Positions 18,654 to 64,000 of a stretch of DNA of 64,000 nt are shown here, piece after piece. Below the pieces are notes generated by a model. It made no database searches. It was given only the letters and a program-made list of their open reading frames with translations, and was not told where the DNA came from. The DNA lies in NCBI GenBank assembly GCA_009926865.1, contig RFOD01000002.1, forward strand, positions 28,576 through 92,575, written 5' to 3'. Both the position numbers and the translations under genes were made by a program. Numbering within the stretch: position 1 is the stretch's first letter; each line of letters starts with the position of its first letter. The DNA comes from Gammaproteobacteria bacterium. Its GTDB lineage: Bacteria; Pseudomonadota; Gammaproteobacteria; Steroidobacterales; Steroidobacteraceae.

Positions 18654-18779
18654 AAAACCTGTGTTGGGTTAGACCCTATGACGCTAAGCCTTGGGAGGTC
18701 ATCTGGCAATGTCTGTGAAGCGATACTCCCGTGTAGCGGCCTCGACGTCATTTGGCTAGTGATGAGAGGATGACTTGAA

Positions 18780-19223: not shown

Positions 19224-19250
19224 ATTTATTTTGATATCAACGGGAGGTTC

Positions 19251-20009
19251 ATGAAAAAAGCACTAATTCTGTTGTCGGTTCTAGCGGCGCCGGTGGCGGG
19301 TGTGGTGGCTTTGGAAATCGGTGGGCTGACCGGGTTCAAGCAGCTTTGGCAGATCCTCTTGTTTGTCTGGCCTGCGAGCATTGCGCTCATCTGGATTCTC
19401 GTTTCGCGGCCGCTTGGTGTTTCGATCGCGCGCCGTCAGGGTGCAGTGAGTTGGAGTGGCCTATCAAAGTTTTTTCATTGGTTTATGGCATTTTGTATGT
19501 TCGGTACAGCAGCGCTGATGTACTACATGGTTAACCTGGGGGATACAGAAGATCCAATCGTCCGTGCCGAGTACAGTTTTTTACTTAAGCAACATAAGTC
19601 AATCGGCTTGATCGTATTGTTTTTAGTGGCCTTTCGTTTTGTTTGGAATCGAGTTCAGACTCGACCACCTGCGGCAGTCGGCATCACGCCGAGTCAACAT
19701 ATGGCATCAAAAGCCAGCCATCATTTTTTGTACTTAGCGATGCTTGTCGTACCGCTACTTGGTTGGATGGCCTCTATGACCTACGGCGGGCGCACATTTT
19801 TCTTCGGCCTGTTTGAGCTGCCCGTTTGGTTGCCCAAGAATATCGATTGGGCATATGTATTACAGCCTGCGCATATTTGGGGGGCTTGGATTATGTTTGG
19901 GGTCGTCGCGATACATGCCACCGCAGCATTGTGGCACCACTTCGTACGCCGAGATGCGACCTTGGCGCAGATGTTGCCCGGCGCTCAGGGTCGGCCGCAG
20001 GGCGACTAA
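19251..20009 (+). CDS. Cytochrome b561-family membrane protein with N-terminal extension
   Basis: Multiple TM helices with conserved His (SKFFHWFMA, HKSIGLIVLFLVAFRFVWN, ASHHFLY, HATAALWHHF), typical of the CybB/Ni_hydr_CYTB fold. Confidence 0.7.
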   Translation: MKKALILLSVLAAPVAGVVALEIGGLTGFKQLWQILLFVWPASIALIWILVSRPLGVSIARRQGAVSWSGLSKFFHWFMAFCMFGTAALMYYMVNLGDTEDPIVRAEYSFLLKQHKSIGLIVLFLVAFRFVWNRVQTRPPAAVGITPSQHMASKASHHFLYLAMLVVPLLGWMASMTYGGRTFFFGLFELPVWLPKNIDWAYVLQPAHIWGAWIMFGVVAIHATAALWHHFVRRDATLAQMLPGAQGRPQGD

Positions 20010-20030
20010 GGGAGCTCAGAAGAACGGTGC

Positions 20031-20534
20031 TTAAGACGGCGCAGCGACTCGCGCGCGATTTGCGCGGCTGATACCGAGCGCGCCACTGCGCACGACCTCA
20101 CGCAATTCTGCGCCTTTGCCGAGATCATGGATGAACCGGTCGACCTCTGCTTCATTCGCGGTTAATTCAACGACAAAACCTTCGGTTGCGGGATCCAACA
20201 CTCGTCCACCTGCTCGAACTACATAGCCACGTACGGCATCCGCTTGTTCGGGGCGCACTTTTAAGCGCAACAATACAAGCTCTCGTTCAATGTGCCCCCC
20301 TTGGGTGAGATCTTCGACAGTGACAATATCAATGAGCTTATTCAGCTGACTCAAGATCTGCTGGATCACAGAGTCCGACCCACGCGTGACCAATGTGATG
20401 CGTGAGACGGTCGGATCATTAGTTGCCGCGACCGATAAGGATTCGATGTTGTATCCCCGCGTGGAGAACAAACCGGCAACACGCGTGAGTGCCCCCGCCT
20501 CGTTTTGCAAGTGTATGGCGATGATGTGTCTCAT
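20031..20534 (-). CDS. ilvH: Acetolactate synthase small (regulatory) subunit
   Basis: MRHIIAIHLQNEAGALTRVAGLFSTRGYNIESLSVA (ACT domain) plus an ALS_ss_C domain. Start at Met9 of the ORF. Confidence 0.9.
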   Translation of the reverse strand: MRHIIAIHLQNEAGALTRVAGLFSTRGYNIESLSVAATNDPTVSRITLVTRGSDSVIQQILSQLNKLIDIVTVEDLTQGGHIERELVLLRLKVRPEQADAVRGYVVRAGGRVLDPATEGFVVELTANEAEVDRFIHDLGKGAELREVVRSGALGISRANRARVAAPS

Positions 20535-20685
20535 GATTCGCCACACAGCATATTGCATGCATGCCTCGAACTGATAGTCTGATGGGCTCTCAAAGCCAGT
20601 TTTTTCAGTGGTGTTCGCCGTGTCTGAGTCAAATGATCGTTCGCTAGCCGCTCATCGTTCCACACATCCTCGCGCTGGGCAGACT

Positions 20686-22479
20686 ATGACTGGCGCTGAA
20701 ATGATTGTGCAGGTGCTCGCCGATGAGGGGACGACCGCGATCTTTGGTTACTCAGGCGGCGCGATTCTGCCAACCTATGATGCGGTGTTTTTGCACAATC
20801 AGGCCTGTGCGAGCGCCGGTCACCCGCAGATGCCACTTATTGTCCCCGCCAATGAACAAGGTGCCGGTTTTATGGCGGCAGGTTATGCACGTGCGAGTGG
20901 TCGAGTCGGTGTGTGCTTGGTGACATCGGGTCCGGGCGCGACTAATACCGTAACTCCGGTGCGTGACTCTATGGCGGACTCGATCCCCATGGTTGTCATC
21001 TGCGGACAAGTACCCACCGCTGTGATTGGTACCGATGCTTTTCAGGAAGCACCTGTCCCAGCACTCATGGGTGCCGTTGCCAAGCATATTTTTTTGGTCA
21101 CCGACCCGGAAAAACTTGAAGCGACCGTGCGTACAGCTTTTGAAATCGCCCGTACGGGTCGGCCTGGGCCCGTCGTGGTGGATGTACCAAAAGATGTTCA
21201 AAATTGGACCGGGGTTTTCCGTAGCGAAGGGCTTTTGCCGATCCCGGGTTATCGCAAGCGTTTGTTTGCCACAACCCATGCCGGTATCGAGGATGATGAG
21301 GCGGCAGAATTCTTTGGGATGCTGAGGCAAGTCAAGCGCCCGTTGATCTATGCGGGGGGTGGCGTCATTAATGGGGATGCGGCTGCCGAGCTCACCGCAT
21401 TCGCGACACGCCTTCAAATCCCAGTTGTCACTACGTTGATGGGCATTGGCGCGTTTGACACAACCCACACTCTGGCCATGCGGATGTTAGGCATGCATGG
21501 CGCGGCGTTCGCTAATTATGCGGTCGATGACTGCGACATGTTAATTGCTATTGGAGCACGCTTTGACGATCGAGTCGCTGGTGTACCTGATAAGTTTGCG
21601 CCGAATGCCAAAAAAATTGCACATATGGATATCGATCGTGCAGAGATAAATAAGGTTAAGCGAGTCGATTGGAGTCATGTCGGAGAATTACGCGCAGCCA
21701 TCGCCACATTGAGCGATTATGCTGAGCGCACCGGGTTCCAAGCCGATTTCAGTGCGTGGCATCGTGAAACTGAACAACTGCGTACCGAATATGCGATGAA
21801 CTATGACCGCGATAGTGAGTTGATTCAGCCTTACTATGTAATCGAAGAAATCAATCGACAAACCCAAGGCGAAGCCATCATCGCAACCGGGGTCGGCCAG
21901 CATCAGATGTGGGCGGCTCAGTACTTTGATTTTCGTCGGCCACGGCTGTGGTTGACGTCTGGCTCAATGGGGACGATGGGTTTTGGTCTGCCCGCTGCAG
22001 TGGGCGCTCAATTTGCGAATCCCGATGCCTTGGTTATTGATATAGACGGTGATGCGTCGATTCGTATGAACATCGGTGAGCTTGAGACGGTGACCACCTA
22101 TAACTTACCCATCAAAGTTGTGGTGCTGAATAACTTTGGCGATGGGATGGTTAAGCAGTGGCAGAAGCTTTTTTTCAAAGGTCGGCTATCTGCGAGCGAT
22201 AAGTCCCTACACAAAAAAGATTTCATCAAGACAGCGCAGGCTGATGGTTTCGAGTTTGCAGTCCGCCTCGACAAAAAATCTGATGTGCCAAAGGTCATCA
22301 AGGACTTTATTGAATTTAAGGGTCCTGCATTTCTTGAGGTGATCATTGACCCAGACGCTGGGGTATATCCCATGGTTGGGCCGGGTCAATCTTATGATGC
22401 AATGATTACTGGTGACTTCATTAAAGCTCGGCATGCAGTGACTGATCCAGAGAGCCCTGGCCCATCACAAATGTTCTGA
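20686..22479 (+). CDS. ilvI: Acetolactate synthase large (catalytic) subunit
   Basis: ThDP-enzyme layout: MTGAEMIVQVLADEGTTAIFGYSGGAILP, GPGATN, ThDP-binding GSMGTMGFGLPAAVGA ... DGDASIRMN ... NN. Start at ATG 20686. Confidence 0.93.
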   Translation: MTGAEMIVQVLADEGTTAIFGYSGGAILPTYDAVFLHNQACASAGHPQMPLIVPANEQGAGFMAAGYARASGRVGVCLVTSGPGATNTVTPVRDSMADSIPMVVICGQVPTAVIGTDAFQEAPVPALMGAVAKHIFLVTDPEKLEATVRTAFEIARTGRPGPVVVDVPKDVQNWTGVFRSEGLLPIPGYRKRLFATTHAGIEDDEAAEFFGMLRQVKRPLIYAGGGVINGDAAAELTAFATRLQIPVVTTLMGIGAFDTTHTLAMRMLGMHGAAFANYAVDDCDMLIAIGARFDDRVAGVPDKFAPNAKKIAHMDIDRAEINKVKRVDWSHVGELRAAIATLSDYAERTGFQADFSAWHRETEQLRTEYAMNYDRDSELIQPYYVIEEINRQTQGEAIIATGVGQHQMWAAQYFDFRRPRLWLTSGSMGTMGFGLPAAVGAQFANPDALVIDIDGDASIRMNIGELETVTTYNLPIKVVVLNNFGDGMVKQWQKLFFKGRLSASDKSLHKKDFIKTAQADGFEFAVRLDKKSDVPKVIKDFIEFKGPAFLEVIIDPDAGVYPMVGPGQSYDAMITGDFIKARHAVTDPESPGPSQMF

Positions 22480-50188: not shown

Positions 50189-50639
50189 AACAACTTTTAT
50201 CGTTGCGGACGCTGAAGCGTCCGCGCGTTTCTATGAGACTGTTTTCGGTTGGACTCGGTTCTACGACCACGAGCTTGTGGCACGGGCGGGTTTTCCGCCT
50301 GTGGGGCCCAAAGATGAACCTGTCAAACTGGTGATGTTGAAAGCTGAGGATCCGTTGATCGGTATGCTCGGTTTTCTGCAATATCTCGAGCCGCCCTTCG
50401 ATACGGGGGTATTACAAGCGCGTAGTAAAGTCCGCATGGGCGAGCCGATTCTCGTAATCCAGACGGATGATGTGCAGGGCGCACACACGCGTGCGGTCGC
50501 AGGTGGAGCGACCATCTGCCAGCCGCCGACGGATTGGTCGGTGCCTTCGCATGATGGCTCAAGCGTGATTCACCTGCGCTCAATGTCGATGTTTGATCCG
50601 CAGGGCATTTACTCTGAAATCAATCAACACCTGTCTTGA
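50169..50639 (+). CDS. VOC/glyoxalase-family protein
   Basis: From ATG 50169: MTSILRRTTFIVADAEASARFYETVFGW, a typical glyoxalase/bleomycin-resistance fold start. Confidence 0.72.
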   Translation: MTSILRRTTFIVADAEASARFYETVFGWTRFYDHELVARAGFPPVGPKDEPVKLVMLKAEDPLIGMLGFLQYLEPPFDTGVLQARSKVRMGEPILVIQTDDVQGAHTRAVAGGATICQPPTDWSVPSHDGSSVIHLRSMSMFDPQGIYSEINQHLS

Positions 50640-52317
50640 GTAGCGCATCAGCCCAATCACGCATATCGTTGGGTAAAGCCACGAATGTAGCGTTAGTCAC
50701 CTCCCGAGCCGCTTGCTGAGAGTGCTCAAGCTGGGGATCCCACGAGGGGGCCGCAAATTCTACGGATCGTTGCAGTTGAGCTAACTTATCTTTAATGGGG
50801 TAGGAGAAGTGAGCGTGGTAGGCCTTGCGCCACATGCCTTCTGAACGAAATAGCTCGAGCACTCTGGCATTCACCATGACAGGGTCAACATAGGGCTCAG
50901 CACGAATAATGCCAGCGCGCGTGCGTCGGTACCACGGCCAGAACAAGCCTTGATCGCGCATAAGGTACCAAGCCTGTAGTAGATGCCCGCCATACCATAC
51001 AGGCTGGATATCAGGCGTGTAATTCTCCAAAAGCTCCGTACGTAAAGCATCATCAAAATACAGGACATCCGCCATGATTAGTCGGCGAATTCGTTGAGGT
51101 CTCTGCAGAGCAAGCTCAAGACCAACTAATCCGCCACCCCATGTGCCGATAAAGTCGATTTCTTTGATTTGCAAGGAATCGAGTGCTTGTGAGACCGCCT
51201 GCGCATAGGCCGTGACATTGATTTCGCCGCCTACGAGAGTGTTATCTGATTCGCCATGACCGGGAAGATTGAGCGCAATCACCGGTTGCTTGCCAATAAA
51301 TCCGCTTGCGAGAGGTCGAACGATATCGCTTGATCCCGCGGCGTCATGGAGGACGAGAATGGGTGTGCCTGAGCCTTCGTCATTACGTTGCAAGCGCAAC
51401 TGACCACCCGGGATCTCCACATAATCGCTCCACATCCGGCCGGGTATGGCCTTCGGTGCCGTAATGGCGGGCGCGGCAGGCGGTGCGTGTTGCAGGATGA
51501 AGTCGCGACAAAGATCTAGAGTCTCTTCCATGCTGCCACCGACCTTCACAGTCACGCAGTCAGAGCGATGTTGAATCCGATCTAATTGAGTTGATAAGAC
51601 ATCGGTTGCGGCGGCTGTAATCAGTGTGGGTACGCGAAGTTCACGCAGCGTTTGATCTGAGCGCATGGTGAAAGCCGCCCGATATCCGACGCGATAGTGA
51701 TCACCAGAACGCATGAAATCTAGGAGGCCCGCGTGTAGGGCCTCGGCTGAGGGGACATCAATGCTCATTCGGTCGGCGAGCGATTTGCGATACCACGGGA
51801 AAAAGATCGTTTGCTCTCGCATCCTGGCCCACAGCCAAGTCAGATGACTGCCATCCCACTTAGGCTCCAATGCAGGAAGGTAATGGCGCACGATGTCTGC
51901 GCGCTCGGGTTCCGTGAGCATGACGTAGCCATTGGCCGCCGCACACACAATCCGTTCGGGGTAAGCCGCTGCAATGGCACCGCTGATCATGGCGCCTGTA
52001 TGAAAGCCATAGACGGCAGCACGTTCGACACCAATCGCGTCCATGAACTCGATGGCGGCGTCGGCGAAGTCGGACATGTCGGCTTGCTCAACGCCAAGTG
52101 GGTCGGACAAGCCAAAGCCCGGTGAGTCGGGGGCAATGCATGTGAAGTGGGTCTGCCAGCGTTCCATGGTGCTGATCATGTCGCGCGAGGACATCGGGGA
52201 TTGATGAAAGCAAATCACGACGGGGCCTGAACCCGTGCGTCGGTAGTGCACCTGGCGCGCACCAAAGCGACCTTGGCGGATGGTGGCAAAATGACGGGTG
52301 ATACCGGTTGTGCTCAT
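50620..52317 (-). CDS. Tandem (fused) double alpha/beta-hydrolase-fold protein
   Basis: Two successive alpha/beta-hydrolase-like halves. First: VVICFHQSP ... PGFGLSD ... YGFHTGA. Second: ILVLHDAAGS ... PGHGESD ... IGTWGGG. Confidence 0.78.
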   Translation of the reverse strand: MSTTGITRHFATIRQGRFGARQVHYRRTGSGPVVICFHQSPMSSRDMISTMERWQTHFTCIAPDSPGFGLSDPLGVEQADMSDFADAAIEFMDAIGVERAAVYGFHTGAMISGAIAAAYPERIVCAAANGYVMLTEPERADIVRHYLPALEPKWDGSHLTWLWARMREQTIFFPWYRKSLADRMSIDVPSAEALHAGLLDFMRSGDHYRVGYRAAFTMRSDQTLRELRVPTLITAAATDVLSTQLDRIQHRSDCVTVKVGGSMEETLDLCRDFILQHAPPAAPAITAPKAIPGRMWSDYVEIPGGQLRLQRNDEGSGTPILVLHDAAGSSDIVRPLASGFIGKQPVIALNLPGHGESDNTLVGGEINVTAYAQAVSQALDSLQIKEIDFIGTWGGGLVGLELALQRPQRIRRLIMADVLYFDDALRTELLENYTPDIQPVWYGGHLLQAWYLMRDQGLFWPWYRRTRAGIIRAEPYVDPVMVNARVLELFRSEGMWRKAYHAHFSYPIKDKLAQLQRSVEFAAPSWDPQLEHSQQAAREVTNATFVALPNDMRDWADALLKTGVD

Positions 52318-53862: not shown

Positions 53863-54540
53863 ATGCGCAAGGCTTGTCGAGTCACCATCCTTGCTGCGAC
53901 CGTGTCGCTGGCCGGCTGCATGAGCGCGGTTATCGAAGAGTCGCGTGAGTTGCCAACCCAGATCGCGGCGGGCGAGGCGGTGGTCATTTTGGCCAAACCT
54001 CAAATTGAAGGCGCGGGTGCTGACGACGATTTTATGGATTGTGTTGGCAAAGGTTTGGATCAGGCCTCCGAGAATATCGTCGTGCACGATAACAATCGGT
54101 TTGTGGATGATTTGTTTCCATGGTTTGAGCCGGCGACGGCTCCGGCTCGGCCTGAAGCGGTCACCGAGCTCTTGAACAAACCGGATGTGGGGGAGCGGAT
54201 CGCGGCGTCAGGCGTGCGTTATCTCGTATGGTTGGACGGTGGGACGCGACGGCTCGATGGCGGTGGCAGTCTGGCGTGTGGAGCCGCGCCGGGGGCGGCA
54301 GGTTGTATCGGGTTCGGTTGGTGGGAAAAAGAGACCGACTACGAAGCCACCATATGGGATTTACAGCGCGCGCGAAGCGCCGGTAGCGTCGGAACGAGTG
54401 TCACGGGAACCTCCGCAATTGTCGGCGCGGTGGTGCCCTTGCCGTTTATTGCTCGAGTGGAAGGAACCGCTTGCGATCGACTCGCAGATCAACTGCATAG
54501 CTTTTTCACAGGGGGTGCTTCCGGGGGGTCAGCTCAATGA
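53863..54540 (+). CDS. Lipoprotein, unknown function (first gene of the candidate kinase/FHA/stator locus)
   Basis: Lipobox MRKACRVTILAATVSLAGC from internal ATG 53863. No recognisable domain. Its stop overlaps the next start (ATGA). Confidence 0.6.
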   Translation: MRKACRVTILAATVSLAGCMSAVIEESRELPTQIAAGEAVVILAKPQIEGAGADDDFMDCVGKGLDQASENIVVHDNNRFVDDLFPWFEPATAPARPEAVTELLNKPDVGERIAASGVRYLVWLDGGTRRLDGGGSLACGAAPGAAGCIGFGWWEKETDYEATIWDLQRARSAGSVGTSVTGTSAIVGAVVPLPFIARVEGTACDRLADQLHSFFTGGASGGSAQ

Positions 54541-55373
54541 AGTGGATGTTCGCGGGATGTCTGCTGTTAGCCCTGATCGCCTTGGGCGCTTGTGCATCGC
54601 CGCCGACAGCCGGTGGCGGTGGAGGCGGTGGCGCGCCTAGCGTGCCGACGACGGGTGGCTCCGGTGGCGGTGGCGCAGGAGATATGCCCAGTGTGCCGAC
54701 GACGGGTGGTTCCGGTGGCGGTGGCGCAGGAGAGATGCCTAGTGTGCCGACGACGGGGTCGCCGGCACCCAGCACGGGCAACGGTGACATGGGTAACGAT
54801 GATGAGGCCGGCGGGAGCGATGTGGATGATGCGGCCACCACAGCGGGAGCGGTTGGCTCGACCGATACGGCTGAAGCGTCGGCTGACGCGTCAGCCGAAG
54901 GTGGTATCTCCGAAGAACCTGCTATGACAGCCGATGAGCGAAAGCGAGCGCTCGCTCGAAAATTAGATGAATCTTTAAACGACTTTGACTCGACACTGGA
55001 AGATGAGCAACGGCGTACGGCTGCCGAGCGTGATGCGCGCACGGCGAGTGCTGCCAGTACTCGCGGCGATGAGATCGGAGATGAGGGCCGTGGCAGTGGC
55101 GGCCGGTCTGGCGATCTTCGCTCAGAGCGAGATCGCCGTCAGTCTACGGTTGCCGGAGGCGCGCGCGGCTCGGGCGGCGCTGCGGGCGGCGCTCGAGACC
55201 GCGGCGCCGTAGGCGCGGGCAGTGGGGCGCCAGATCGGGGTATTCCCTCTGGCGATGATGATGACATTGTTGCACGTAGACTGAGGCGAGCAGCCGAGCA
55301 AGAAACAGATCCGGAGCTCAAAGAGAAGCTGTGGCAGGAATACATTGAGTACAAGCGCAATGCACAGGGATGA
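54537..55373 (+). CDS. Lipoprotein, Gly-rich and acidic, predicted disordered, with tandem repeats
   Basis: Lipobox LIALGAC. Poly-Gly tract and PSVPTTGGSGGGGAG[D/E]M repeats. Long acidic/Arg-rich low-complexity region. Conserved-looking C-terminal helix (DDDIVARRLRRAAEQETDPELKEKLWQEYIEYKRN). Confidence 0.6.
   Translation: MKWMFAGCLLLALIALGACASPPTAGGGGGGGAPSVPTTGGSGGGGAGDMPSVPTTGGSGGGGAGEMPSVPTTGSPAPSTGNGDMGNDDEAGGSDVDDAATTAGAVGSTDTAEASADASAEGGISEEPAMTADERKRALARKLDESLNDFDSTLEDEQRRTAAERDARTASAASTRGDEIGDEGRGSGGRSGDLRSERDRRQSTVAGGARGSGGAAGGARDRGAVGAGSGAPDRGIPSGDDDDIVARRLRRAAEQETDPELKEKLWQEYIEYKRNAQG
54636..54758 (+). repeat. 51-bp in-frame tandem repeat, about 2.4 copies
   Basis: Copies at 54636..54686 and 54687..54737, with a partial copy to about 54758. 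Each full copy encodes PSVPTTGGSGGGGAG(D/E)M. The copies differ at a few mostly synonymous positions. Confidence 0.85.
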
Positions 55374-56652
55374 TGCCATCAAAAATTTTCTCGGGATTCA
55401 TCAAGAAGAGCTGAGTGCCAGCGTGTCTAAACTGACGCTTTTGGCGCTTGGTTTTCTGATCCTGACGGGTTGTGTGGTGAATGAGGTTCGGCCACAACCG
55501 AAGCTACAGGCGGTACAAGCGACGCAGATGATTGCGCAAGCCGAGCTGCTTGATGTTGCGGTCGTTGATTTTGATTCGGGAGTACCGAAAGCCTTACTCG
55601 ACGATGAGCAAGAGCTTGAAAAAAGACGGATTTATCCCGAGGTTAGGCGCGCCGAGTCTCGTCTACTTGCGGTAAGACTCAAAGAAACCTTAGAAAACAC
55701 GGGCCAATGGGGCGCGGTTCGGGTTGTGCCGCCAAGTGTCAATTATGTGGACGTCGTGGTGACTGGGCGGATCATCGAATCAACAGGCTCGGAGCTCGCC
55801 TTGCGAGTATCGGCACGTGATGCGTCGGGGCGAGTTTGGATTGACGACAAGCCCTATCAGGCCGACGCAGATTTGGGTTCCTATAAAACCGAAGCTGCCC
55901 TCAAGGCCCGCGATCCTTTTCAAAATATTTATGTACAGATTGCCGACGATTTACTGGCGGCGCGTCAGCAGTTAAGTGCTACGCAGCGACGCGAGGTTCG
56001 CCAGATCGCAGAATTACGTTTCGCAGGGGATTTAGATCCTGCTTCGTTTTCAGGCTACATACAGGCGAGCGAAGGTGGTCAGTGGTCTCTCGTGCGTTTG
56101 CCAGCAGCAGATGATCCAGCCTTGCTAAGAATTCGAGCTATTCGAGAGCGAGATGCCAGTGTCATCGATACCTTGGATGGCTATAACCAAGAGTTTTCGG
56201 ATCAGTTGTTTGAGTCTTATGGGTCATTTCGTCGTACTAGTCGCGAAGCGATTGAGAAGGCGGATAAGGCTCGAAATCAGGCGATGACCCGTACAGTATT
56301 GGGTGCAGCCGCTGTCTTGGGTAGTATTTTTGTGGGGAGTAATTGCTCGTCCATGGATTACAACTGCCGGCGTATAGACGATGCGGTACGGACTGCTGGG
56401 GTGATTGGTGGGACGGCGGCCGTTATGTCCGGTATAAAAAAATTCTCTGATGCCAAAATTGCGGCACAAGAAGTGCGTGAGTTAGCTGATAGTTTTGAGG
56501 CAGAGGTTGCCGGGCAGGTGGTGGAAGTCGAAGGGCGAACACTCAAATTGACGGGTACTGCTGAAGAGCAATACCGAGAGTGGCGTCGATTGCTGGCGGC
56601 GATCTATCGAGAAGAAACGTTGCCCGAGTCCGCTGCAACGCCAGCACCGTAG
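55345..56652 (+). CDS. Lipoprotein/membrane protein, unknown function
   Basis: Lipobox LGFLILTGC. The N-terminal domain has VAVVDFDSG, which looks LpoB/CsgG-like (inference). The C-terminal region has Gly-rich hydrophobic segments (VLGAAAVLGSIFVG, GVIGGTAAVMSG). Overlaps the upstream gene. Confidence 0.55.
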   Translation: MSTSAMHRDDAIKNFLGIHQEELSASVSKLTLLALGFLILTGCVVNEVRPQPKLQAVQATQMIAQAELLDVAVVDFDSGVPKALLDDEQELEKRRIYPEVRRAESRLLAVRLKETLENTGQWGAVRVVPPSVNYVDVVVTGRIIESTGSELALRVSARDASGRVWIDDKPYQADADLGSYKTEAALKARDPFQNIYVQIADDLLAARQQLSATQRREVRQIAELRFAGDLDPASFSGYIQASEGGQWSLVRLPAADDPALLRIRAIRERDASVIDTLDGYNQEFSDQLFESYGSFRRTSREAIEKADKARNQAMTRTVLGAAAVLGSIFVGSNCSSMDYNCRRIDDAVRTAGVIGGTAAVMSGIKKFSDAKIAAQEVRELADSFEAEVAGQVVEVEGRTLKLTGTAEEQYREWRRLLAAIYREETLPESAATPAP

Positions 56653-56669
56653 CCGACGCTGGAGCGCTG

Positions 56670-59009
56670 ATGGAGTTTTCCTTGTTCGAGAAGGGGCAAA
56701 GACTCTGCGACCGCTTCGTGTTGCTCGAAATACTTTACGCCGCAGACGACTGGTCGATTTGGCAGGCGCTGGATGAGCAGCGCTCCGTCCAGGTGGCCAT
56801 TAAATGCATCGTCCGTGATAACCCGCGAGCCGATGAACAATGGAGACTGATGCTTCGGCAATATGCCGTACGTTTACGACTCGATCACGAGCGAGTGCTG
56901 AGGATTGACGAGCCAGTTCGTGATCATGAAGTTTGTGTACTACCAATGCAGCTGGCCGCAGGCAACGCGAGTCGCTTACGAGGCAAGGCTTGGCGCCAAT
57001 GGCGTGCGGTTGCCATTGATGTGGCGCGTGCCCTAGCGCATTTGCATCAGCGTGGTTGGGTACACGGCGATCTCAAGTCAAGCAATGTCTTACTGGACTT
57101 CCGTGGCGATGCGTTGCTCGCAGATTTCGAATCGACCACCGCTTGTGGCGAGGTAGCGCCGCTTAGCGGCTCTCCATTCAGCGCAAGTCCCGCTCGCCTA
57201 CGCGAACAGCCAGTCAGCATTGCAGACGACCTTTACGGATTCGGTGCATTGCTGCATGAATGGATGACCGGTTACCCCCCGTATTTTCCTGAGCGACCGG
57301 ATCCGAGTCAGTTCCCGTCATTGCCTCCGTTACATTGCGTTCATCCGACTCCCGAGCATTTGAAATCTTTGGTCATACGTTTGTTGGCTTCTGAGCCAAG
57401 CGCTCGACCTTCAAATATGGCTGAAGTGCTTGAATGCTTGGAATGCGATGAGAGCGGTACAGTAAGCCCTGTACTCAGTGCTGACTCCGACGTATTCGAC
57501 ATATCACAGGTTATCGCCGTCACGCCAAATCGTGATGAGGCGCGAGTCGCTGAGCTCGCGGGCGACTCCAGAAAAAGTCGGCGGTGGATTGGTGTCGGTG
57601 TCGTCGCCGGGTTGCTGCTCGGCGGTCTTTGGTGGGTTTTGCCTCAATTGACGCAACAGCAAAGCGCACAGCTGACAAAAGCTTTGTCTGCTGCGCGCGA
57701 AGCGGCTGGGCTTGATGATGCTACGACCTCATCGAGTGTAGTGTCGGACTCCGCAGAGGGCGCCGGCGCGACCCTCGCGCCATCGGTACGTTACGCCACG
57801 CTCGAGGATGCTTATCTCGCTAAGCTCGAAGAGCTTGAGCGGCGTGCAGCCGGCGTCTGGGGTGGTGAAGTATTTGCCAGTGGTAAATCTTTGGGTCGCT
57901 TAGCCAAGGAAGCGGCCGATGACCGAGATTGGGAGATTGCTCTTGATCGGATTGCCGTAGCCACTCGTCGACTCGAGCGTGTCGAAGTTGACATCCCAGT
58001 AATTAAGGCCACTCGATTGCAAGATGCTGTGGCAGCGCTAGATCTTGGGCAGCTTGAGCTGGCGAGACAAAACTTTGATCTGGTGCGCCAAATTGAGCCT
58101 ACCGATTCTCAAGCGCTCGAGGGTCTGGAGCGTGTCTCAGCGCTCGCTGCTGTCTTGCCCGTGCTCGCCCAGGCGGAGTCGGCACTACTGGCAGGGCAAG
58201 CGCTACAGGCCTTAACTTTATTTGAGCAAGTTTTGCGGGTCGATGCCGGTAATCGTCGTGCTAAAGATGGCTTGCAGCAAGCGAGTTTAAGCTTAGGTAA
58301 CGATCAATTTGGTCAAGCGATTGGTGAAGCGCTCGCCGAATTGCGGGCGGGTGATTTTCCGGCCGTTGAATCGGCATTACAACGCGCAGCCGCGCTACGC
58401 CCCTTAGCGCCGGAGCTCGCAGCCGTACGCGCGCAGTTATCGGCGGGGGTTGAAAGGCGCGCCCTGGAGGGTGAGCGCGAGCGTATTCTCGCGCTCGAGC
58501 AGGCTGAACGCTGGGGTGAGGCTTTGCGTCGCTACGAGCAGGTCTTGGCGCAAGATCCCAGTTTGGTATTTGCACGTACGGGTCGGGAGCGCGTGGCTTC
58601 GCGAGCCCTTGTCGAGCAAAGATTTAATGCCTTGATCGGTGAGCCTGCTCGTTTGGTTTCCCCCGATGTGCGCAGAGAAGCGCAGCGACTCATTGCTCAA
58701 TCAGACGTATGGCTCAAAAAGGGCGGTGCGCCTGTGCTGGAGCGTCAACGTGCGGCTTTAGAGACAGAGTTAGAGCGCTTTGCGCAGCGAATTAGAACCG
58801 TCATTGAGTCAGATGGAATGACAGAAGTGCGCATCCAAAGGGTAGGTTCGCTCGGCGTCTTTGAACGCAGAGAACTTGAGTTACAACCTGGGCGTTATGT
58901 GGCGATTGGTACTCGGGCGGGGTTTCGTGATGTCCGTCTAGAGTTTTCTCTGATGCCGGGCGAGTCTACGCCCGTGATTGATGTTAGATGCTCGGAGTCG
59001 GTGACGTGA
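56670..59009 (+). CDS. Hanks-type Ser/Thr protein kinase (atypical motifs), one TM helix, periplasmic TPR-like region
   Basis: ATG 56670 preceded by GGAG. VAIK Lys (VQVAIKCI), catalytic loop VHGDLKSSNVLLD, DFE in place of DFG (LLADFEST), and DLYGFGALLHEWMTGYPPY. TM helix WIGVGVVAGLLLGGLWWVL. Repetitive helical Ala/Leu-rich region. C-terminal beta-domain (PGRYVAIGTRAGFRDVRLEF). Confidence 0.85.
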   Translation: MEFSLFEKGQRLCDRFVLLEILYAADDWSIWQALDEQRSVQVAIKCIVRDNPRADEQWRLMLRQYAVRLRLDHERVLRIDEPVRDHEVCVLPMQLAAGNASRLRGKAWRQWRAVAIDVARALAHLHQRGWVHGDLKSSNVLLDFRGDALLADFESTTACGEVAPLSGSPFSASPARLREQPVSIADDLYGFGALLHEWMTGYPPYFPERPDPSQFPSLPPLHCVHPTPEHLKSLVIRLLASEPSARPSNMAEVLECLECDESGTVSPVLSADSDVFDISQVIAVTPNRDEARVAELAGDSRKSRRWIGVGVVAGLLLGGLWWVLPQLTQQQSAQLTKALSAAREAAGLDDATTSSSVVSDSAEGAGATLAPSVRYATLEDAYLAKLEELERRAAGVWGGEVFASGKSLGRLAKEAADDRDWEIALDRIAVATRRLERVEVDIPVIKATRLQDAVAALDLGQLELARQNFDLVRQIEPTDSQALEGLERVSALAAVLPVLAQAESALLAGQALQALTLFEQVLRVDAGNRRAKDGLQQASLSLGNDQFGQAIGEALAELRAGDFPAVESALQRAAALRPLAPELAAVRAQLSAGVERRALEGERERILALEQAERWGEALRRYEQVLAQDPSLVFARTGRERVASRALVEQRFNALIGEPARLVSPDVRREAQRLIAQSDVWLKKGGAPVLERQRAALETELERFAQRIRTVIESDGMTEVRIQRVGSLGVFERRELELQPGRYVAIGTRAGFRDVRLEFSLMPGESTPVIDVRCSESVT

Positions 59010-61423
59010 CTCGCGACCAGATTTTTATCTTTGAGCCGATGGGTGATAGGGCGCTATCGGCGCCGATCCGTGTGGGGTCTGCAACGGACTGTGATGTACG
59101 CATTCCGGATGATGAGACAGATCGGGAATTAATCATTGATAGAGATTCTGAGGGGTGGTTCATTCTGATCACCGCCGATGGTGCAAATCTAAACGGCGTG
59201 CCGTTACAGAGGGACTGGCGTTATCAGTTGCAGACCGAGGATGTGTTACGGATCGGTGATGCAGTACTACGAGTTCGTCTACTCGAGACGGATTTGGAAT
59301 TGCTTATTGATCATCCAGAGGGTAACGCGACCTTGGCGCCTTCAGCGCCCGTTTCTTTGCTTCAATACGATGAGCAAGCCGAGGAGCGTATTTCCGCTGC
59401 GCCGCGTGAGTTTTCTAAATCAATACCCTCAGACGATACAGGTTATCGAGTCAATCGGAAATTTGTTTGGGGGTCTTTGTTCGGCCTGGTTGCCATCTTG
59501 TTACTGGTTGTTACGATTTTGGGGCGCTTGCAGCCAGTGACGTTCGTAGTCGATCCAACGACAGCTTCGGTGGGGGGCTCGGGCTTAGGCTGGACATCTG
59601 GCAATACGCTATTTTTGATGCCAGGTGAGCGGACAATTCTTGCGTCTGCAAAGGGTTATTCATCGCTCCAACAACGGGTGTCGATCAAGCCAGATGAGCC
59701 CATGAGTTTACAGCTGCGGTTGGAGCCCCTACCCGGGATTGTGGAAGTCGATACCGCGGGTGTCGCAGCTGAAGTCTTTGTGGACGGCGCGCGCACAGGT
59801 AAAGTGCCTGGAGACTTGGAAATACTGCAAGGCATGAGAACGCTGACCATTCGAGCAGATAAATATTTTGACGAAATTCGGCAGTTGGAAGTTGAGGGGT
59901 TTGGGGTGCGTCAAGTTATCTCGGTACCCCTTCGTCCATCCTGGGGAACCGTGCAAGTGCAGACCGACCGTGCGGCGGCGACTCTGATCATTGAGGGGCA
60001 GGACCCCATCCCATTACCCGCTGAAGTGCAATTGCCGGCTGGGCTTCATCGATTGGAAGTGGCGGCACCCGAAGCGAAGTCTTGGCGTGGAGCGGTTTTG
60101 GTGGAAGCGGGAGTCGTTCAAACAATCGGCCCGTTATCTTTGGGGGAGCCAGATGCGATCTGGCAAATAAGCTCTCGCCCATCGGGCGCGTCGGTCACTG
60201 TCAACGGTGTATTTCGCGGTCGGACGCCTCTGGAGGTCACGCTCACACCTCAGATGGAGCATCAGATTACGGTGGGTGAGCAAGGATATTCACAAGTTGA
60301 GCGGCGGGTTCGACCGATGCCGGCCGAACGTCAAACTTTGCAACTTAACCTAGACGTACGTCGAGTGACATTGACGGTTGAGGGTGAGCCCATCGGAGCA
60401 GAGATTTTCTTGGCAGGACGTAAGTTGGGGGTTTCGCCGCTGGAGGTGGAACTGCCGGCGCGCCGAGCACAGTTGAGTATTCGCCAGCAGGGCTTTACCG
60501 AACAGTCCTTAAGCGTGGATTTGTCGTCAGGCGTTGCGCGACAAGTGACCTATCGGCTTGTACCTGAGGGGCGATCAGCTGATTGGCAGCCCCCCGCGCC
60601 ACAGGTGAGCTTAGTTCAGGGGCCGGTGCTGCGTTTGATACAAGGGGGTAGTTTTACGATGGGTAGCGCTCGACGCGAGCAGGGACGTCGCTCAAATGAG
60701 TGGCAACGGCGCGTCACGCTGCAGCGGCCCTTTTATATGGGGACGCGAGAAATAAGTAACGGCGAGTTTCGTCGTTTTCGTGCAGATCACGCATCGGGGT
60801 TCATTGGTAAACGCAGCCTCGATCTGGATTCGCAGTCGGTGACGGGTATTAGCTGGGAGGATGCAGTCGAATACTGCAATTGGTTATCGGCGCAAAACGG
60901 GCTCACACCCGCATACACTAAAAAGGAGGGTCGTTGGACTTTGGTGCAACCCGTTAACACAGGTTTCCGGTTACCCACTGAGGCGGAATGGGAATTTGTC
61001 ACTCGAGTTGAACCGGACGCCGCGCCAGTTCGTCGCTATCCCTGGGGCATGCAATTGCCGCCACCTATCGCAACGGCGAATCTTGCGGGCGAGGAGGCTG
61101 CAGCCGATTTATCGAGGACCCTCTCAGGATGGCGTGATGAGTATGTTGTGGTGGCGCCCAGCGCACAGCATCCGGCTAACACGAGAGGTTTGTACGATTT
61201 ATTAGGTAACGTGTCAGAGTGGGTGCATGACGCGTACGCAACGGTGCCTGAAGGGGAGCCCTTGGATCCGATCGGGCCGACCATAGACACTCGCTTACGA
61301 GTGATCAAAGGAGCTAATTGGCGAACGAGTCAATTTGCCGACTTACGTGCGGCGTGGCGGGACGGGCGCGATCGCCCCGCTGATGACGTGGGGTTTCGTA
61401 TTGCGCGCTATGCAGAAGAGTGA
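58988..61423 (+). CDS. FHA-like domain, TM helix, multiple PEGA domains and FGE/SUMF1 (formylglycine-generating-enzyme-like) domain fusion protein
   Basis: N-terminal FHA-like segment (PIRVGSATDCDVRIPDD ... VLRIGDAVLRV). TM helix FVWGSLFGLVAILLLVVTILG. PEGA-like repeats (AAEVFVDGARTGKVPGDL, ASVTVNGVFRGRTPLEV, GAEIFLAGRKLGVSPLEV). FGE-sulfatase motifs (GGSFTMGS, ISWEDAVEYCNWLS, RLPTEAEWEF, GNVSEWVHD, VGFRIARY). An alternative GTG start at 59006 gives a GTGA overlap with the kinase stop. Confidence 0.85.
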   Translation: MLGVGDVTRDQIFIFEPMGDRALSAPIRVGSATDCDVRIPDDETDRELIIDRDSEGWFILITADGANLNGVPLQRDWRYQLQTEDVLRIGDAVLRVRLLETDLELLIDHPEGNATLAPSAPVSLLQYDEQAEERISAAPREFSKSIPSDDTGYRVNRKFVWGSLFGLVAILLLVVTILGRLQPVTFVVDPTTASVGGSGLGWTSGNTLFLMPGERTILASAKGYSSLQQRVSIKPDEPMSLQLRLEPLPGIVEVDTAGVAAEVFVDGARTGKVPGDLEILQGMRTLTIRADKYFDEIRQLEVEGFGVRQVISVPLRPSWGTVQVQTDRAAATLIIEGQDPIPLPAEVQLPAGLHRLEVAAPEAKSWRGAVLVEAGVVQTIGPLSLGEPDAIWQISSRPSGASVTVNGVFRGRTPLEVTLTPQMEHQITVGEQGYSQVERRVRPMPAERQTLQLNLDVRRVTLTVEGEPIGAEIFLAGRKLGVSPLEVELPARRAQLSIRQQGFTEQSLSVDLSSGVARQVTYRLVPEGRSADWQPPAPQVSLVQGPVLRLIQGGSFTMGSARREQGRRSNEWQRRVTLQRPFYMGTREISNGEFRRFRADHASGFIGKRSLDLDSQSVTGISWEDAVEYCNWLSAQNGLTPAYTKKEGRWTLVQPVNTGFRLPTEAEWEFVTRVEPDAAPVRRYPWGMQLPPPIATANLAGEEAAADLSRTLSGWRDEYVVVAPSAQHPANTRGLYDLLGNVSEWVHDAYATVPEGEPLDPIGPTIDTRLRVIKGANWRTSQFADLRAAWRDGRDRPADDVGFRIARYAEE

Positions 61424-61701
61424 GTTCTGACGTGTCTACCCTAAAAGCCAGTAGTCGTCTGTCGCAAGCCACGGGTTGGCGCATGATTGTCGCGACTGCG
61501 TTGACGGCAATCATTTGTTGGCTCGTGGTACTTGTGATGTTGCGCGGTGTCGTCGCGCAGAATGCGGAGCCCGTTGGGACCGAGACCAACGAAGAAGAGG
61601 TGGTGTCGCGCCGTGTTTTGCCGCAGACAGAGCGAGAGGCGGACGCACCTGAATTTCGTGAGTCGGCGGATAACAATATTAGCTTTCCGGTGGATATATG
61701 A
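61420..61701 (+). CDS. Small single-pass membrane protein
   Basis: 93-aa ORF with TM helix WRMIVATALTAIICWLVVLVML. Overlaps both neighbouring genes by 4 nt (GTGA and ATGA). Confidence 0.5.
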   Translation: MSSDVSTLKASSRLSQATGWRMIVATALTAIICWLVVLVMLRGVVAQNAEPVGTETNEEEVVSRRVLPQTEREADAPEFRESADNNISFPVDI

Positions 61702-62495
61702 AAAAGTTGCCCAGCGAATTCGTCTTTATTGTGGCGGCATTATTGATTGCCGCCGTATTTGTGCACTCGGTCTACATTTTGCACATACGGCCTGTTGCTG
61801 AAATGACGCTCAAAATTGACCGCGAGCGTATGGCGGAGGACCCTGAGTACGTCGCAGACCGTTCCATATATGTGGTTATCAAAGATTATGAGCAGCAGGC
61901 CACGATTACGCTGATGTTATGGGCCTTGGCCATTATGGCCTTCAAGGCGATACAGCAACGCCGGGAAGCGGAGGTACTGGAGTCGGAATTGCTACGCTTG
62001 CCAGACGGCGTCAAGATTTTGCCCGAAGACACTCGGGAATACATGCGTCAGGTCGAGTCATTACCGATCGATACTCGAGGCTTATTGGTGCCGCGTGCAT
62101 TGCTTGGGGCACTGGCGAGATTTGGTGCTACGCGTAATGTTCAAGACGCTTCAACAGTAGCGCACGGGATCTGTCAGTCAGAGGCGGAACGTCTAGATTC
62201 TGATTTGGCATTGTTGCGGTATATCGCTTGGGCGATTCCCGCGATTGGTTTCATTGGTACGGTACGCGGCATTGGCGATGCGCTATCCCAGGCGCATAAA
62301 GCCGTCACGGGCGATATCTCTGGTGTGACCGAGGGCTTAGGCGTTGCGTTCAATTCGACCTTAATTGCGCTATTGTTATCAATTCTTCTGATGTTTTTGA
62401 TGCAACAGCTGCAGCAAGCTCAGGAGCGTCGAGTGCTCGATACCGAGACGTGGCTCGATCAAAAAGTCATCCGTAATCTGCAAGCGCGTGGCTAA
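61698..62495 (+). CDS. MotA/TolQ/ExbB-family proton-channel protein
   Basis: Three TM helices. PF01618-type signature: LRYIAWAIPAIGFIGTVRGIGDAL ... GVTEGLGVAFNSTLIALLLSILLMFL. Confidence 0.85.
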   Translation: MKKLPSEFVFIVAALLIAAVFVHSVYILHIRPVAEMTLKIDRERMAEDPEYVADRSIYVVIKDYEQQATITLMLWALAIMAFKAIQQRREAEVLESELLRLPDGVKILPEDTREYMRQVESLPIDTRGLLVPRALLGALARFGATRNVQDASTVAHGICQSEAERLDSDLALLRYIAWAIPAIGFIGTVRGIGDALSQAHKAVTGDISGVTEGLGVAFNSTLIALLLSILLMFLMQQLQQAQERRVLDTETWLDQKVIRNLQARG

Positions 62496-63712
62496 TGATT
62501 GGCGGTTTTCTCAATGAGCAGCAACTGATTCTGTCTGCAGCGGACGGATCACAGACCCTGCGTGCGGAGTTGGATGCGGGTCTTGATCAACGAGGTTTGC
62601 AGATCGCCAAGCAATGGCATAGCGCAGGCTTTCCCGACGCTCAGTTTTCTTTGGCAACGACCGCTCACGAGACCCCCGACCGATTGGCGGAGCTACTATC
62701 TACTCTGGATCGTGAAGGCTTGTCACTTACAGCGTTCATGGACTCGGCCGCATTGGTGGCGGGTGCGGTGGGTTTTAAAGGGGTAGGACTCGTCCTGCAA
62801 TTCCTACGTCATAGTGCATTAGTGACTCGCATTGTAGAGACGGAGGGTCGGTATCGTCGTGCCGCATTTTCCGTCGGAGAGGGTTGCGGACTGATAGATA
62901 TCCGTCGCGCCTGTCTGCAGTGCATTGCAGATCGTATGATTCGGCAAAGCCGTTTCGATCCACTGCACGATGTAAAAGACGAGGAGTATCTGGCGACCCA
63001 TTTGCTTGATTGGCTAAAGCAGGCGATGGAAGAAGGTTCTGTCACCATCAGCATGACGGCGCTCGGTAAGTCAATCGAACTGACGATCAGCTTGGGTGAG
63101 TTCATCAATGCAACAGAGCCTATCTTCAAAAAAATCCGAACTTTGGTGCTGGACACTCGACTACCTGGGACACGCGACTATCTACTCCTCCCTGACTGGC
63201 TAGGCCACACGCCAGGCGCTCGCGAGTATGTCGCGGCGCTGTCCGGATCAGCAGCTTATCTATTTGATGAATCGATCATTGCGCGTGCGGCTGCGCGCTG
63301 TGTACTTCCACCACGCGAGGATGACGCGGTCACGTTATATCGGCAGGTCGAGTTAGCGCCCTTTGCTGAAAGGGAAATCAAGTCGTTTAACGCTGAATCC
63401 AGTGAGTATCGCGCGCCGACTCACCTTCTTTATGGAAGTCGCGTTTGGCAGCTGATGACGTCGATGCGAGTGGGTCGAGGCGCTGACTGCACGGTGGTAT
63501 TGCCTCAAGGTGTAGCAGGCATATCACGTGATCATTGTACGTTGACAAGGCTGGACGACGAATGGGTGCTGATTGATCACAGTCGTTATGGTACGTGGAT
63601 CAATGATGAACGAGTCCGTGGTCGGCAGCGACTGGCGGCAGGAGATCGAGTGCGCGTGGGTGATCTAGGTGTTGAGCTGAATCTGATCACTGTGAGTGAC
63701 AATGATGGCTAA
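62495..63712 (+). CDS. Cytoplasmic protein with unknown ~300-aa N-terminal domain and canonical C-terminal FHA domain
   Basis: FHA signature: VGRGADCTVVLPQGVAGISRDHCTLTRLDDEWVLIDHSRYGTWINDERV ... GDRVRVGD. No TM segment. Start abuts the ExbB-like stop. Confidence 0.8.
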   Translation: MIGGFLNEQQLILSAADGSQTLRAELDAGLDQRGLQIAKQWHSAGFPDAQFSLATTAHETPDRLAELLSTLDREGLSLTAFMDSAALVAGAVGFKGVGLVLQFLRHSALVTRIVETEGRYRRAAFSVGEGCGLIDIRRACLQCIADRMIRQSRFDPLHDVKDEEYLATHLLDWLKQAMEEGSVTISMTALGKSIELTISLGEFINATEPIFKKIRTLVLDTRLPGTRDYLLLPDWLGHTPGAREYVAALSGSAAYLFDESIIARAAARCVLPPREDDAVTLYRQVELAPFAEREIKSFNAESSEYRAPTHLLYGSRVWQLMTSMRVGRGADCTVVLPQGVAGISRDHCTLTRLDDEWVLIDHSRYGTWINDERVRGRQRLAAGDRVRVGDLGVELNLITVSDNDG

Positions 63713-64000
63713 GCGCCGGGTTGAGGTTTTCAGTCTGTCGTTTTTGGATGTGATCTGCTGCGGATTTGGCGCCGTCATTCTTTTCTACACCATCATCAGC
63801 GCGCAAAGCGGTGTTGAGCGTACGCGGCAGGCGGAGGATCTGGCAGCACAGGTCTCGCTACTGGAAGAAGAAGTGCTACGCGGTGCCAAGAATCTAGTTC
63901 TACTACGAAATACACTCGAGAAAACTGAATCCGAGACAGTGTCCGCAGCATCGCGCGCTACCCAACTCATCGAAGCGTTGCAGCGACGACGAGAGGAGGC
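63705..64000 (+). CDS. Partial ORF: ExbD/TolR-like Asp-containing TM helix followed by a coiled coil (runs off the window)
   Basis: Not in the ORF track because it has no stop. ATG at 63705 overlaps the upstream stop. My translation: MAKRRVEVFSLSFLDVICCGFGAVILFYTIISAQSGVERTRQAEDLAAQVSLLEEEVLRGAKNLVLLRNTLEKTESE... The FLDV-plus-hydrophobic-helix segment resembles the ExbD (PFIDVMLVLLIIF) and TolR (PLLDVLLVLLLIF) TM regions. Confidence 0.55.
   Translation, partial: MAKRRVEVFSLSFLDVICCGFGAVILFYTIISAQSGVERTRQAEDLAAQVSLLEEEVLRGAKNLVLLRNTLEKTESETVSAASRATQLIEALQRRREE

Follow-up and report, generated by a model that had tools for sequence, protein, structure and literature searches.

A candidate phosphorylation-gated, TolQ-like trans-envelope motor locus with its own lipoprotein set in a Steroidobacteraceae genome

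Flagella, TonB uptake, envelope maintenance by Tol-Pal, gliding, type IX secretion and Zorya defence are all driven by motors of the stator-type 5:2 class, and each newly understood member of this class showed a new route by which inner-membrane energy crosses the periplasm. We know of no stator-type motor that is gated by Ser/Thr phosphorylation. Here, we describe a gene cluster in the window, a stretch of 64,000 nucleotides from a Gammaproteobacteria bacterium of the Steroidobacteraceae (assembly GCA_009926865.1, contig RFOD01000002.1, positions 28,576 to 92,575 of the forward strand). The cluster begins at window position 53863 and runs off the window end at 64000; its genes are called O1 to O11 below. 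The original prediction, made from the letters alone, had seen here a candidate uncharacterised envelope system of lipoproteins, a Ser/Thr kinase, two FHA proteins and an ExbB/ExbD-like stator pair. By a modest measure, we favor reading the locus as a phosphorylation-gated, proton-driven trans-envelope motor that acts on an outer-membrane lipoprotein platform.

The closest described system is the TPH-vWA motor, reported from in silico work (PMC12204202, Mol Biol Evol 2025). There, a tolQ homologue is linked to a heterologous pair of vWA genes in place of tolR or exbD, the vWA helices were modelled by AlphaFold 3 within a TolQ-like pentamer, a helix Asp is conserved, and the family occurs in Proteobacteria and beyond. 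The same paper gives the function of the vWA pair as unknown, and its supplements give neither sequences nor a neighbourhood table for this vWA family. Two further systems supply relevant parts. In the threonine-phosphorylation pathway of the type VI secretion system (T6SS), the target of TagR is the C-terminal domain of PpkA, a kinase with a vWA domain in the periplasm (PMC3224232). In the Agl-Glt machinery, GltG carries an FHA domain beside a transmembrane (TM) helix and is predicted to bind the motor (PMC11761067).

Like the TPH-vWA family, our locus links a tolQ-like gene to two genes for membrane-tethered vWA proteins and has the pore Thr and the helix Asp. The channel protein O7 (61698..62495, plus strand, 265 amino acids (aa)) falls in the MotA/TolQ/ExbB family, as predicted (Pfam MotA_ExbB, 3.4e-14). 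Its sequence can be aligned to MotA (8gqy) and to the two final helices of E. coli TolQ (8odt). In the 8odt alignment, Thr188 and Thr221 of O7 correspond to the TolQ pore-ring residues Thr145 and Thr178, respectively, and neither O7 residue varies in the family alignment. The GFIGTVRG motif of this family was found in 73 of 79 loci. O9 (63705..64000, plus strand, cut by the window end; 364 aa when complete) has the N-terminal helix SFLDVICCGFGAVILF, which bears an Asp like that of the TolR/ExbD/MotB helix. Its paralogue O10 (351 aa, beyond the window) has nearly the same N-terminal helix, FSLSFLDVICCGFGA[VI]IL, with the whole proteins 25% identical. This Asp, within the motif SFLD[VCAI], is invariant in 76 O9-type and 74 O10-type orthologues. 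In each protein, the helix is followed by a coiled coil of ~125 residues and then by a vWA domain (VWA_2 match 5.5e-7 for O9 and 1.3e-3 for O10). The DxSxS of the metal ion-dependent adhesion site (MIDAS) is kept in 68/69 O9 and 64/66 O10 orthologues, and nearly all loci carry both members of the pair. The prediction of an ExbD/TolR-like ORF needs refining: its Asp-bearing helix is genuine and invariant, but the protein is of the transpore-helix/coiled-coil/vWA kind, and no operon protein matched the ExbD, TolR or MotB families in Pfam or NCBIfam. By the features visible in their sequences, O7 and O9/O10 can be placed in the TPH-vWA/TolQ-like motor family (PMC12204202), matched by its described features and not by its Idiomarina seed.

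Unlike the TPH-vWA locus as published, an FHA/Hsp70-like gene lies between the tolQ-like and vWA genes here. The text of PMC12204202 has the word "kinase" 0 times and mentions no FHA or Hsp70-like protein, PEGA-FGE protein, lipoproteins, FPVDI-tailed protein or TPR/TonB_C partner. A literature search for the full gene combination returned that computational motor pair as the sole relevant description. The earlier view that no characterised system has such a composition holds for experimental work; the motor core had been described in silico in 2025 (PMC12204202). Already known is the motor pair alone. New are the degenerate Hsp70 domain on O8, two lipoprotein folds, the Cys-less FGE-like domain, the FPVDI tail, the TPR/TonB_C partner and the co-variation between kinase and FHA domain.

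The nine same-strand open reading frames (ORFs) predicted between 53863 and 64000 were all found, overlapping or abutting at the predicted junctions. Read directly in the sequence, O1 and O2 share ATGA at 54537/54540, the O3 start (ATG 55360 or TTG 55345) precedes the O2 stop at 55373, and the O3 stop at 56652 is followed by GGAG and the O4 ATG at 56670. The O5 start (ATG 58988 or GTG 59006) overlaps the O4 stop at 59009, O5 and O6 meet in GTGA at 61420/61423 with an alternative O6 start at GTG 61432, and O6 and O7 share ATGA at 61698/61701. O7 and O8 join in TAATG at 62495, and the O9 ATG at 63705 overlaps the O8 stop at 63712. Within the block, promoter-like sites numbered 1 vs 4.9 in shuffled controls and terminator-like sites 13 vs 10.5, in neither case an excess. 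The junctions and these counts are consistent with the single operon that was predicted, short of proof.

For the DNA downstream of the window, we used six contigs (L001-L006) that encode an identical O8 protein, one of which differs from the window by 5 mismatches in 8.8 kb. The locus runs past 64000 on these contigs, as had been expected: the rest of O9 is followed by O10 and then by O11 (a 249-aa lipoprotein), after which the operon stops. Past O11 lie, convergently, a gene for a 482-aa TPR protein, a CMAS-type methyltransferase gene, a DUF2062 gene and a UvrA-like gene. Downstream sequence had been named beforehand as a refuting test for the prediction, and on these contigs it contained no T6SS, gliding, Tol-Pal or TonB cluster. 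The system comprises 12-13 genes, rather than nine.

A search of the protein collection with the TolQ-like O7 gave >7,000 relatives (E<=1e-5). Scanning one genome per species gave 580 matching stretches, and the best 80 loci, with up to 10 kb of flank on each side, were compared by searching fifteen reference proteins against all six-frame ORFs. The best 80 span Steroidobacteraceae, Nevskiaceae, Woeseiaceae, Pseudomonadales, Chromatiaceae, Rhodospirillaceae, a deltaproteobacterium, Isosphaeraceae and several Acidobacteriota classes, and an uncultured Acidibacter metagenome-assembled genome matches the window at 99%. The order O2-O3-kinase-O5-(O6)-TolQ-O8-vWA-vWA recurs on one strand. Enough flank was available at 50 loci, hereafter the long loci, and 48 of them keep the seven core genes (O3-kinase-O5-(O6)-TolQ-O8-vWA-vWA) in order on a single strand; the taxa are Steroidobacteraceae, Nevskiaceae, Woeseiaceae, Pseudomonadales, Rhodospirillaceae, Deltaproteobacteria and several Acidobacteriota classes. 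Chance falls far short of explaining such an arrangement, and the synteny, whose absence would have refuted the original prediction, is strongly conserved across phyla. In one exception (L063), O3 was not detectable. In the other (L049), 5 kb at 4887-9995 had no ORF >150 aa where O3, the kinase-position gene and O5 were expected, with the downstream motor genes intact; this gap reflects either pseudogenisation or a poor-quality assembly.

When all other ORFs of the 80 loci were clustered, the 10-kb flanks yielded no further cross-clade gene family, and no secretin, barrel, ATPase, nuclease or PP2C was conserved there. Since no other flank family is conserved, the system appears complete. Database names for the operon proteins are generic or "hypothetical" throughout. 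A lone TolQ-like gene, 66% identical to O7, was also met at 4941-5789 of a viral contig (L087, IMG/VR_UViG_3300028794_000114), flanked by an NhaA-type antiporter gene on one side and P2-like phage baseplate genes on the other; it may stem from a chimeric assembly, from a prophage that inserted into the cluster or from gene capture.

The second half of the argument concerns control. O4 (56670..59009, plus strand) is a 779-aa bitopic Hanks-type Ser/Thr kinase (Pfam Pkinase, 4e-21), which bears out the membrane-spanning kinase of the prediction. The kinase domain (residues 32-252) is followed by a TM helix at ~335-357, periplasmic TPR-like helices and a C-terminal beta-sandwich. It carries the VAIK Lys, HGDLKSSN and DFE with a degenerate Gly-rich loop; most of the 52 orthologues aligned read HRDLKPSN and DFG. 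With its VAIK Lys, catalytic-loop Asp/Asn and DFG Asp, O4 would qualify as an active Hanks-type kinase. The kinase domain is absent in several clades, and the catalytic residues are lost in others. In one locus (L036), the kinase orthologue is a 501-aa protein with TPR only, and its O5 lacks the N-terminal region; such a short form of O5 occurs in some clades.

O8 (62495..63712, plus strand) is a 405-aa cytoplasmic protein with an FHA domain at residues 325-389 (Pfam, 5.7e-16) that keeps the canonical pocket residues GR, SRDH and GTWIN. A profile of 30 orthologues searched against the PDB matched an FHA domain at the C-terminus (3po8, 5.6e-8) and, over ~250 N-terminal positions, the nucleotide-binding domain (NBD) of DnaK (8w1m, 4.3e-7) and SSB1 (4.3e-6). 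The phosphate-binding loops are not conserved, reading ELNDA and HLD.xLH vs DLGTT and DLGGGT in Hsp70/DnaK, and the O8 proteins of the window and of one other locus (L008) lack ~50 residues of the Hsp70-like domain (405 vs ~455 aa in most). The N-terminal domain therefore looks like a degenerate Hsp70/DnaK NBD-like (actin-fold) domain. O8 is probably a scaffold and not an ATPase. Its gene is always between the channel and vWA genes.

O5 (58988..61423, plus strand, 811 aa) combines a cytoplasmic FHA-like fold, a TM helix at ~165-187, three to four periplasmic PEGA domains (three repeats in Pfam PEGA, 1.3e-35) and an FGE-like domain at 550-807 (FGE-sulfatase, 3.7e-40). Of the two FHA proteins predicted, O8 is clear. 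O5 is weak: its Pfam FHA match (5.4e-3) lies below the curated cut-off, with Yop-YscD_cpl at 1.1e-4, and its pocket reads GS...TDRE where the canonical GR/SRxH is expected, so that the canonical residues for phosphothreonine binding are lost. The predicted PEGA repeats and FGE-like domain stand. Aligned with human FGE (2aft, 2.7e-16), the O5 domain has WRTSQFA in place of MCHRSYC, with both Cys336 and Cys341 replaced, and it is non-catalytic with the fold retained. The kinase, FGE, PEGA, MotA_ExbB and O8 FHA assignments all pass the Pfam cut-offs. Of the conditions named beforehand as refuting the prediction, namely a known cluster downstream, a lack of synteny or failed HMM matches, none came about.

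Kinase and O8 pocket co-vary. SRxH is present in the O8 FHA domain at 38/38 loci with an intact kinase vs 1/13 with an absent or degenerate kinase (Fisher 8e-11). Likewise, loci with long O5 (N-terminal region present) and loci without it stand at 34:2 with an intact kinase vs 4:9 with an absent or degenerate one. This co-variation ties the kinase functionally to O8. Because a kinase-less form of the system exists, phosphorylation counts as a layer of regulation and not as part of the machine itself, whose other components work without it. When O7, O8, O9 and O10 were compared for kinase-specific Ser/Thr residues, the FHA pocket residues alone differed; candidates for the phospho-acceptor are the kinase itself and a variable linker.

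This control logic resembles, by analogy, that of PpkA/Fha1 in type VI secretion. Both place a bitopic Hanks kinase, an FHA reader, an outer-membrane lipoprotein and a periplasmic vWA domain in one unit. The original likening to the PpkA/Fha1/TagR/TagQ pathway is reasonable as an analogy of parts (PpkA vWA, TagR; PMC3224232). Unlike that pathway, the vWA domain here sits on the motor plug and not on the kinase, the FHA protein has an Hsp70-like domain and the output is a TolQ-like motor. TssB/C, Hcp, VgrG, TssM and PppA/PP2C were absent from the window, the downstream DNA and the 80 loci, in agreement with the predicted lack of T6SS core genes and PP2C, the window scan for PP2C covering the 29 other ORFs of 172-565 aa with five ORFs >600 aa outside it. 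The TagH FHA model scored 44 bits vs a cut-off of 120. TagR itself may be FGE-like, which would give the two units a further periplasmic part in common. An FGE-like part also recalls type IX secretion, in which PorLM and PorK/PorN offer a 5:2-type motor, a periplasm-spanning dimer and the non-catalytic FGE-fold PorK/GldK. O5 matches PorK (9mzu) at 1.7e-10 and is nearer in sequence to true FGEs; unlike PorK, it is TM-anchored and not a lipoprotein, and no PorL/M/N, Sov or other type IX secretion gene accompanies it.

The lipoproteins are likely partners on the outer-membrane side. The three predicted lipobox proteins without recognisable domains are O1 (53863..54540, plus strand, 225 aa, LAGC, four invariant Cys), O2 (54537..55373, plus strand, 278 aa, LGAC) and O3 (55360..56652, plus strand, 430 aa, LTGC), and none matched a Pfam family. 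O1 had no Pfam, NCBIfam or PDB match by sequence. Its AlphaFold 2 (AF2) model (pLDDT 70) matched PelC (5t0z, E 1.4e-6, probability 1.0) in Foldseek, and also CsgG, FlgT and an LPHT-ring chain, which gives a predicted fold of the PelC/CsgG/FlgT/LptE type. O3 had no useful PDB sequence match either; a single match to an Ig-like repeat protein (9ncf) was disregarded as short and repetitive. In O3, an N-terminal alpha/beta domain leads into long helices, then into a hydrophobic segment rich in Gly, and lastly into a C-terminal domain that is conserved. Residues ~55-280 of its AF2 model reach pLDDT 70-94 and matched the Vibrio LPHT ring (8z5n, 1e-4), TolB (4r40, 3.5e-3, probability 1.0) and LptE, so the N-terminal domain is modelled as a TolB-N/LptE/FlgT-type fold. 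Beneath the outer membrane, known members of the PelC/CsgG/TolB-N/LptE-type fold class typically build rings or platforms. O3 serves as the signature protein of the system. Among 1.84 billion representatives, 803 clusters belong to its family (E<=1e-10), for which Pfam has no model.

O2 is a low-complexity protein rich in Gly, Ser, Asp and Glu with a conserved C-terminal helix, DDDIVARRLRRAAEQETDPELKEKLWQEY, and orthologues in 38/50 long loci. A tandem repeat at 54610-54757 (51 bp x 2.9) encodes the 17-aa unit GGSGGGGAG-D/E-MPSVPTT. Among otherwise near-identical contigs, O2 is 261, 278 or 282 aa long, which suggests that the repeat copy number varies between strains. O6 (61432..61701, plus strand) is a small (89-93 aa) exported protein in which a variable acidic linker joins a signal peptide or anchor to an extreme C-terminus that is conserved, ...SADNNISFPVDI-COOH, whose tail motif is encoded at 61684-61698. 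In most loci, a small exported ORF separates the O5 gene from the TolQ-like gene; its tail [FLY]P[VITSA][DN][IF]-stop was found in 66/77 loci, the last residues alone being conserved. The TPR protein bears a signal peptide, and 10/10 of its orthologues contain a TonB_C domain (best E 5e-8). The genes for O1, O11 and the TPR/TonB_C protein co-occur in 35-38 of the 50 long loci and shift together to either cluster end or to the opposite strand, as functional partners would. Because they co-occur in changing positions, the convergent TPR gene downstream of the window is likely a component.

These parts invite comparison with Tol-Pal, which shares with our locus a TolQ-family channel, a two-helix Asp plug, a proton-driven periplasm-spanning element, a TolB-N-type fold (here in O3), a linked TPR protein and outer-membrane lipoproteins. 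Unlike Tol-Pal, the locus has no TolR periplasmic domain, TolA, TolB beta-propeller or OmpA-type Pal by Pfam and NCBIfam; its plug proteins span the periplasm and end in vWA domains, and the kinase/FHA control has no Tol counterpart. The TolQ equivalog scored 27.7 bits on O7 vs a cut-off of 221. The TonB system differs as well: ExbB equivalogs were far below cut-off, there was no ExbD and no receptor in the flanks, and TonB_C sits on a signal-peptide TPR protein.

The following mechanism would join these parts. An O7 pentamer would form the channel of a 5:2-type proton motor, and an O9/O10 heterodimer would supply two central transpore helices, each with a protonatable Asp, standing in for TolR/ExbD/MotB. 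The coiled coils (~125 residues) could reach ~18 nm if extended and would be tipped by vWA heads with a metal-ion site. As the proton-driven helices continue into vWA-tipped arms, proton flow would become rotation of, or pulling on, an acidic ligand held by the heads. Candidate ligands near the outer membrane are the O6 tail, the acidic lipoprotein O2 and the O1/O3/O11 platform. Partners on the outer-membrane side would be O1/O3/O11, O2, O6, the secreted TPR/TonB_C protein and the PEGA and FGE-like ectodomain of O5. TolA, TonB and GltG dock at the edge of their motors; O5 may do likewise, and its FGE-like domain may contact the vWA heads after the manner of TagR acting on the vWA-bearing C-terminus of PpkA. 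O4 would sense a periplasmic cue and make phosphothreonine, the canonical FHA domain of O8 would read it, and the Hsp70-like scaffold domain of O8 would engage or release the motor, so that the kinase would gate the motor through O8. The domain identities, conserved residues, synteny and kinase/FHA co-variation are observations; we infer the 5:2 assembly, the coiled-coil reach, all protein contacts, the direction of control and the physiological output.

Several points weigh against this reading. The whole case is computational. O7 has four hydrophobic segments vs three in TolQ, and its direct similarity to solved TolQ and MotA is weak, with a marginal match in a single-sequence search (E about 0.05) and no PDB match to a profile of close orthologues. 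The AF2 models of the lipoproteins are moderate (mean pLDDT 64 and 70), with Foldseek TM-scores low to middling. The Fisher test on kinase and FHA pocket ignores phylogeny, and the kinase-less loci sit in few clades. The alignments of O7, O9 and O10 showed no conserved Ser/Thr that depends on the kinase, and no cognate phosphatase is linked to the locus. As for the output, energised coupling or remodelling of the outer membrane, Tol-Pal-like, is our best guess.

The alternative that survives best, though we consider it unlikely, is that the system is mainly an envelope sensor of proton-motive force or of outer-membrane/peptidoglycan integrity, whose output is kinase signalling to unlinked targets. 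The large periplasmic domain on the kinase, the lack of an obvious substrate or cargo gene and the motor proteins without a conserved phospho-acceptor would all suit a sensor. The kinase-less, FHA-degenerate version, however, retains every other component, which indicates that the non-kinase parts have a function of their own, and the FHA reader is fused to a protein encoded inside the motor gene block.

An apparatus for surface adhesion or gliding, akin in principle to Myxococcus Agl-Glt and with a TolQR-like motor driving vWA heads and TPR scaffolds, is improbable. The likeness is real in its parts: Agl-Glt pairs a TolQ/R-type motor with the bitopic FHA-TMH protein GltG, TPR proteins and the vWA adhesin CglB (PMC11761067), and O5 is similarly an FHA-TMH-ectodomain protein in a locus with vWA and TPR proteins. 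Unlike the surface lipoprotein of Agl-Glt, however, the vWA domains here are tied to the inner membrane by the motor helix. Outer-membrane barrels and the small GTPase module are missing: no GltA/B/H/K-like barrels, MglA/AglZ-like regulators or exported adhesin recurred in the 80 loci, and no sequence homology to Glt proteins was detected.

Very doubtful is a Zorya-type anti-phage defence, in which a MotAB-like envelope sensor would trigger an effector. PADLOC, run on all nine window proteins, matched ZorA weakly to O7 (2.5e-5) and the kinase domain to the defence kinases PD-T4-6 and mad6 (1e-26), the latter being generic kinase-domain similarity, and matched no further operon protein. The TolQ-like orthologue beside P2-like baseplate genes on an IMG/VR contig could also be counted for defence, but it was 1 match in 2.9 million viral contigs and came without the rest of the system; a plasmid collection searched with O9 gave no match. 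Unlike Zorya, the locus showed no ZorA long cytoplasmic tail/ZorB/ZorC/D/ZorE set, no nuclease, helicase or other effector (no effector family in the flanks) and no ZorB-type peptidoglycan-binding partner. The context is stable on chromosomes within families, and divergence follows taxonomy. We rejected the defence reading on the ground that PADLOC gave generic kinase and weak ZorA matches alone. Scarcely credible, and for linked genes largely refuted, is that the block serves a nearby known machine (T6SS phosphorylation, gliding/T9SS (type IX secretion), Tol-Pal or TonB) as an accessory or regulatory module: the kinase, FHA, FGE-like and lipoprotein set recalls PpkA/Fha1/TagR/TagQ, there are partial NCBIfam matches to TagH FHA (2e-11), GldK (5.5e-26), TolQ and ExbB, and a TonB_C domain is present on the linked TPR protein, but the downstream DNA is without any such cluster, NCBIfam equivalog scores are all well under their cut-offs, and T6SS, T9SS, Tol, Pal and TonB-dependent receptor families recur in none of the flanks of the 80 loci.

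Returning to the phosphorylation-gated motor, we put forward a broader proposal with more doubt than belief, though not by far: the locus may represent a distinct, widespread trans-envelope machine of diderms, in which vWA-tipped plug arms pull or rotate against a lipoprotein ring under a Hanks kinase and an FHA/Hsp70-like clutch. If true, eukaryote-like phosphorylation control would be seen for the first time in a stator-type motor, and the cellular role of that motor would fall outside the Tol, Ton, Mot, Agl, Gld and Zor systems. The locus would add to the stator class a member whose plug proteins are themselves the force transducers, with its own set of outer-membrane lipoproteins and with an activity apparently gated by Ser/Thr phosphorylation. 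Among environmental Gammaproteobacteria and Acidobacteriota the system is common, and the fact that its carriers are poorly studied genetically would explain why it was overlooked. The natural kinase-less variants, the invariant Asp and the FPVDI tail would serve as experimental handles.

Some features of the surrounding DNA are also recorded. The UvrA-like gene past O11 lies ~7 kb past the window end, on the minus strand at 17326-21218 of one downstream contig (L001); it encodes 1866 aa with UvrA DNA-binding and interaction domains, ~2x the length of an ordinary UvrA, and extends off the locus end. Upstream of the cluster, window positions 1-53700 hold no tRNA genes and encode ordinary metabolism and transport, including a thiolase, dehydrogenases, an ABC transporter, cytochromes, a threonine dehydratase and MFS transporters. 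On the minus strand at 50620-52317 lies a gene for a 565-aa protein with two tandem alpha/beta-hydrolase domains.

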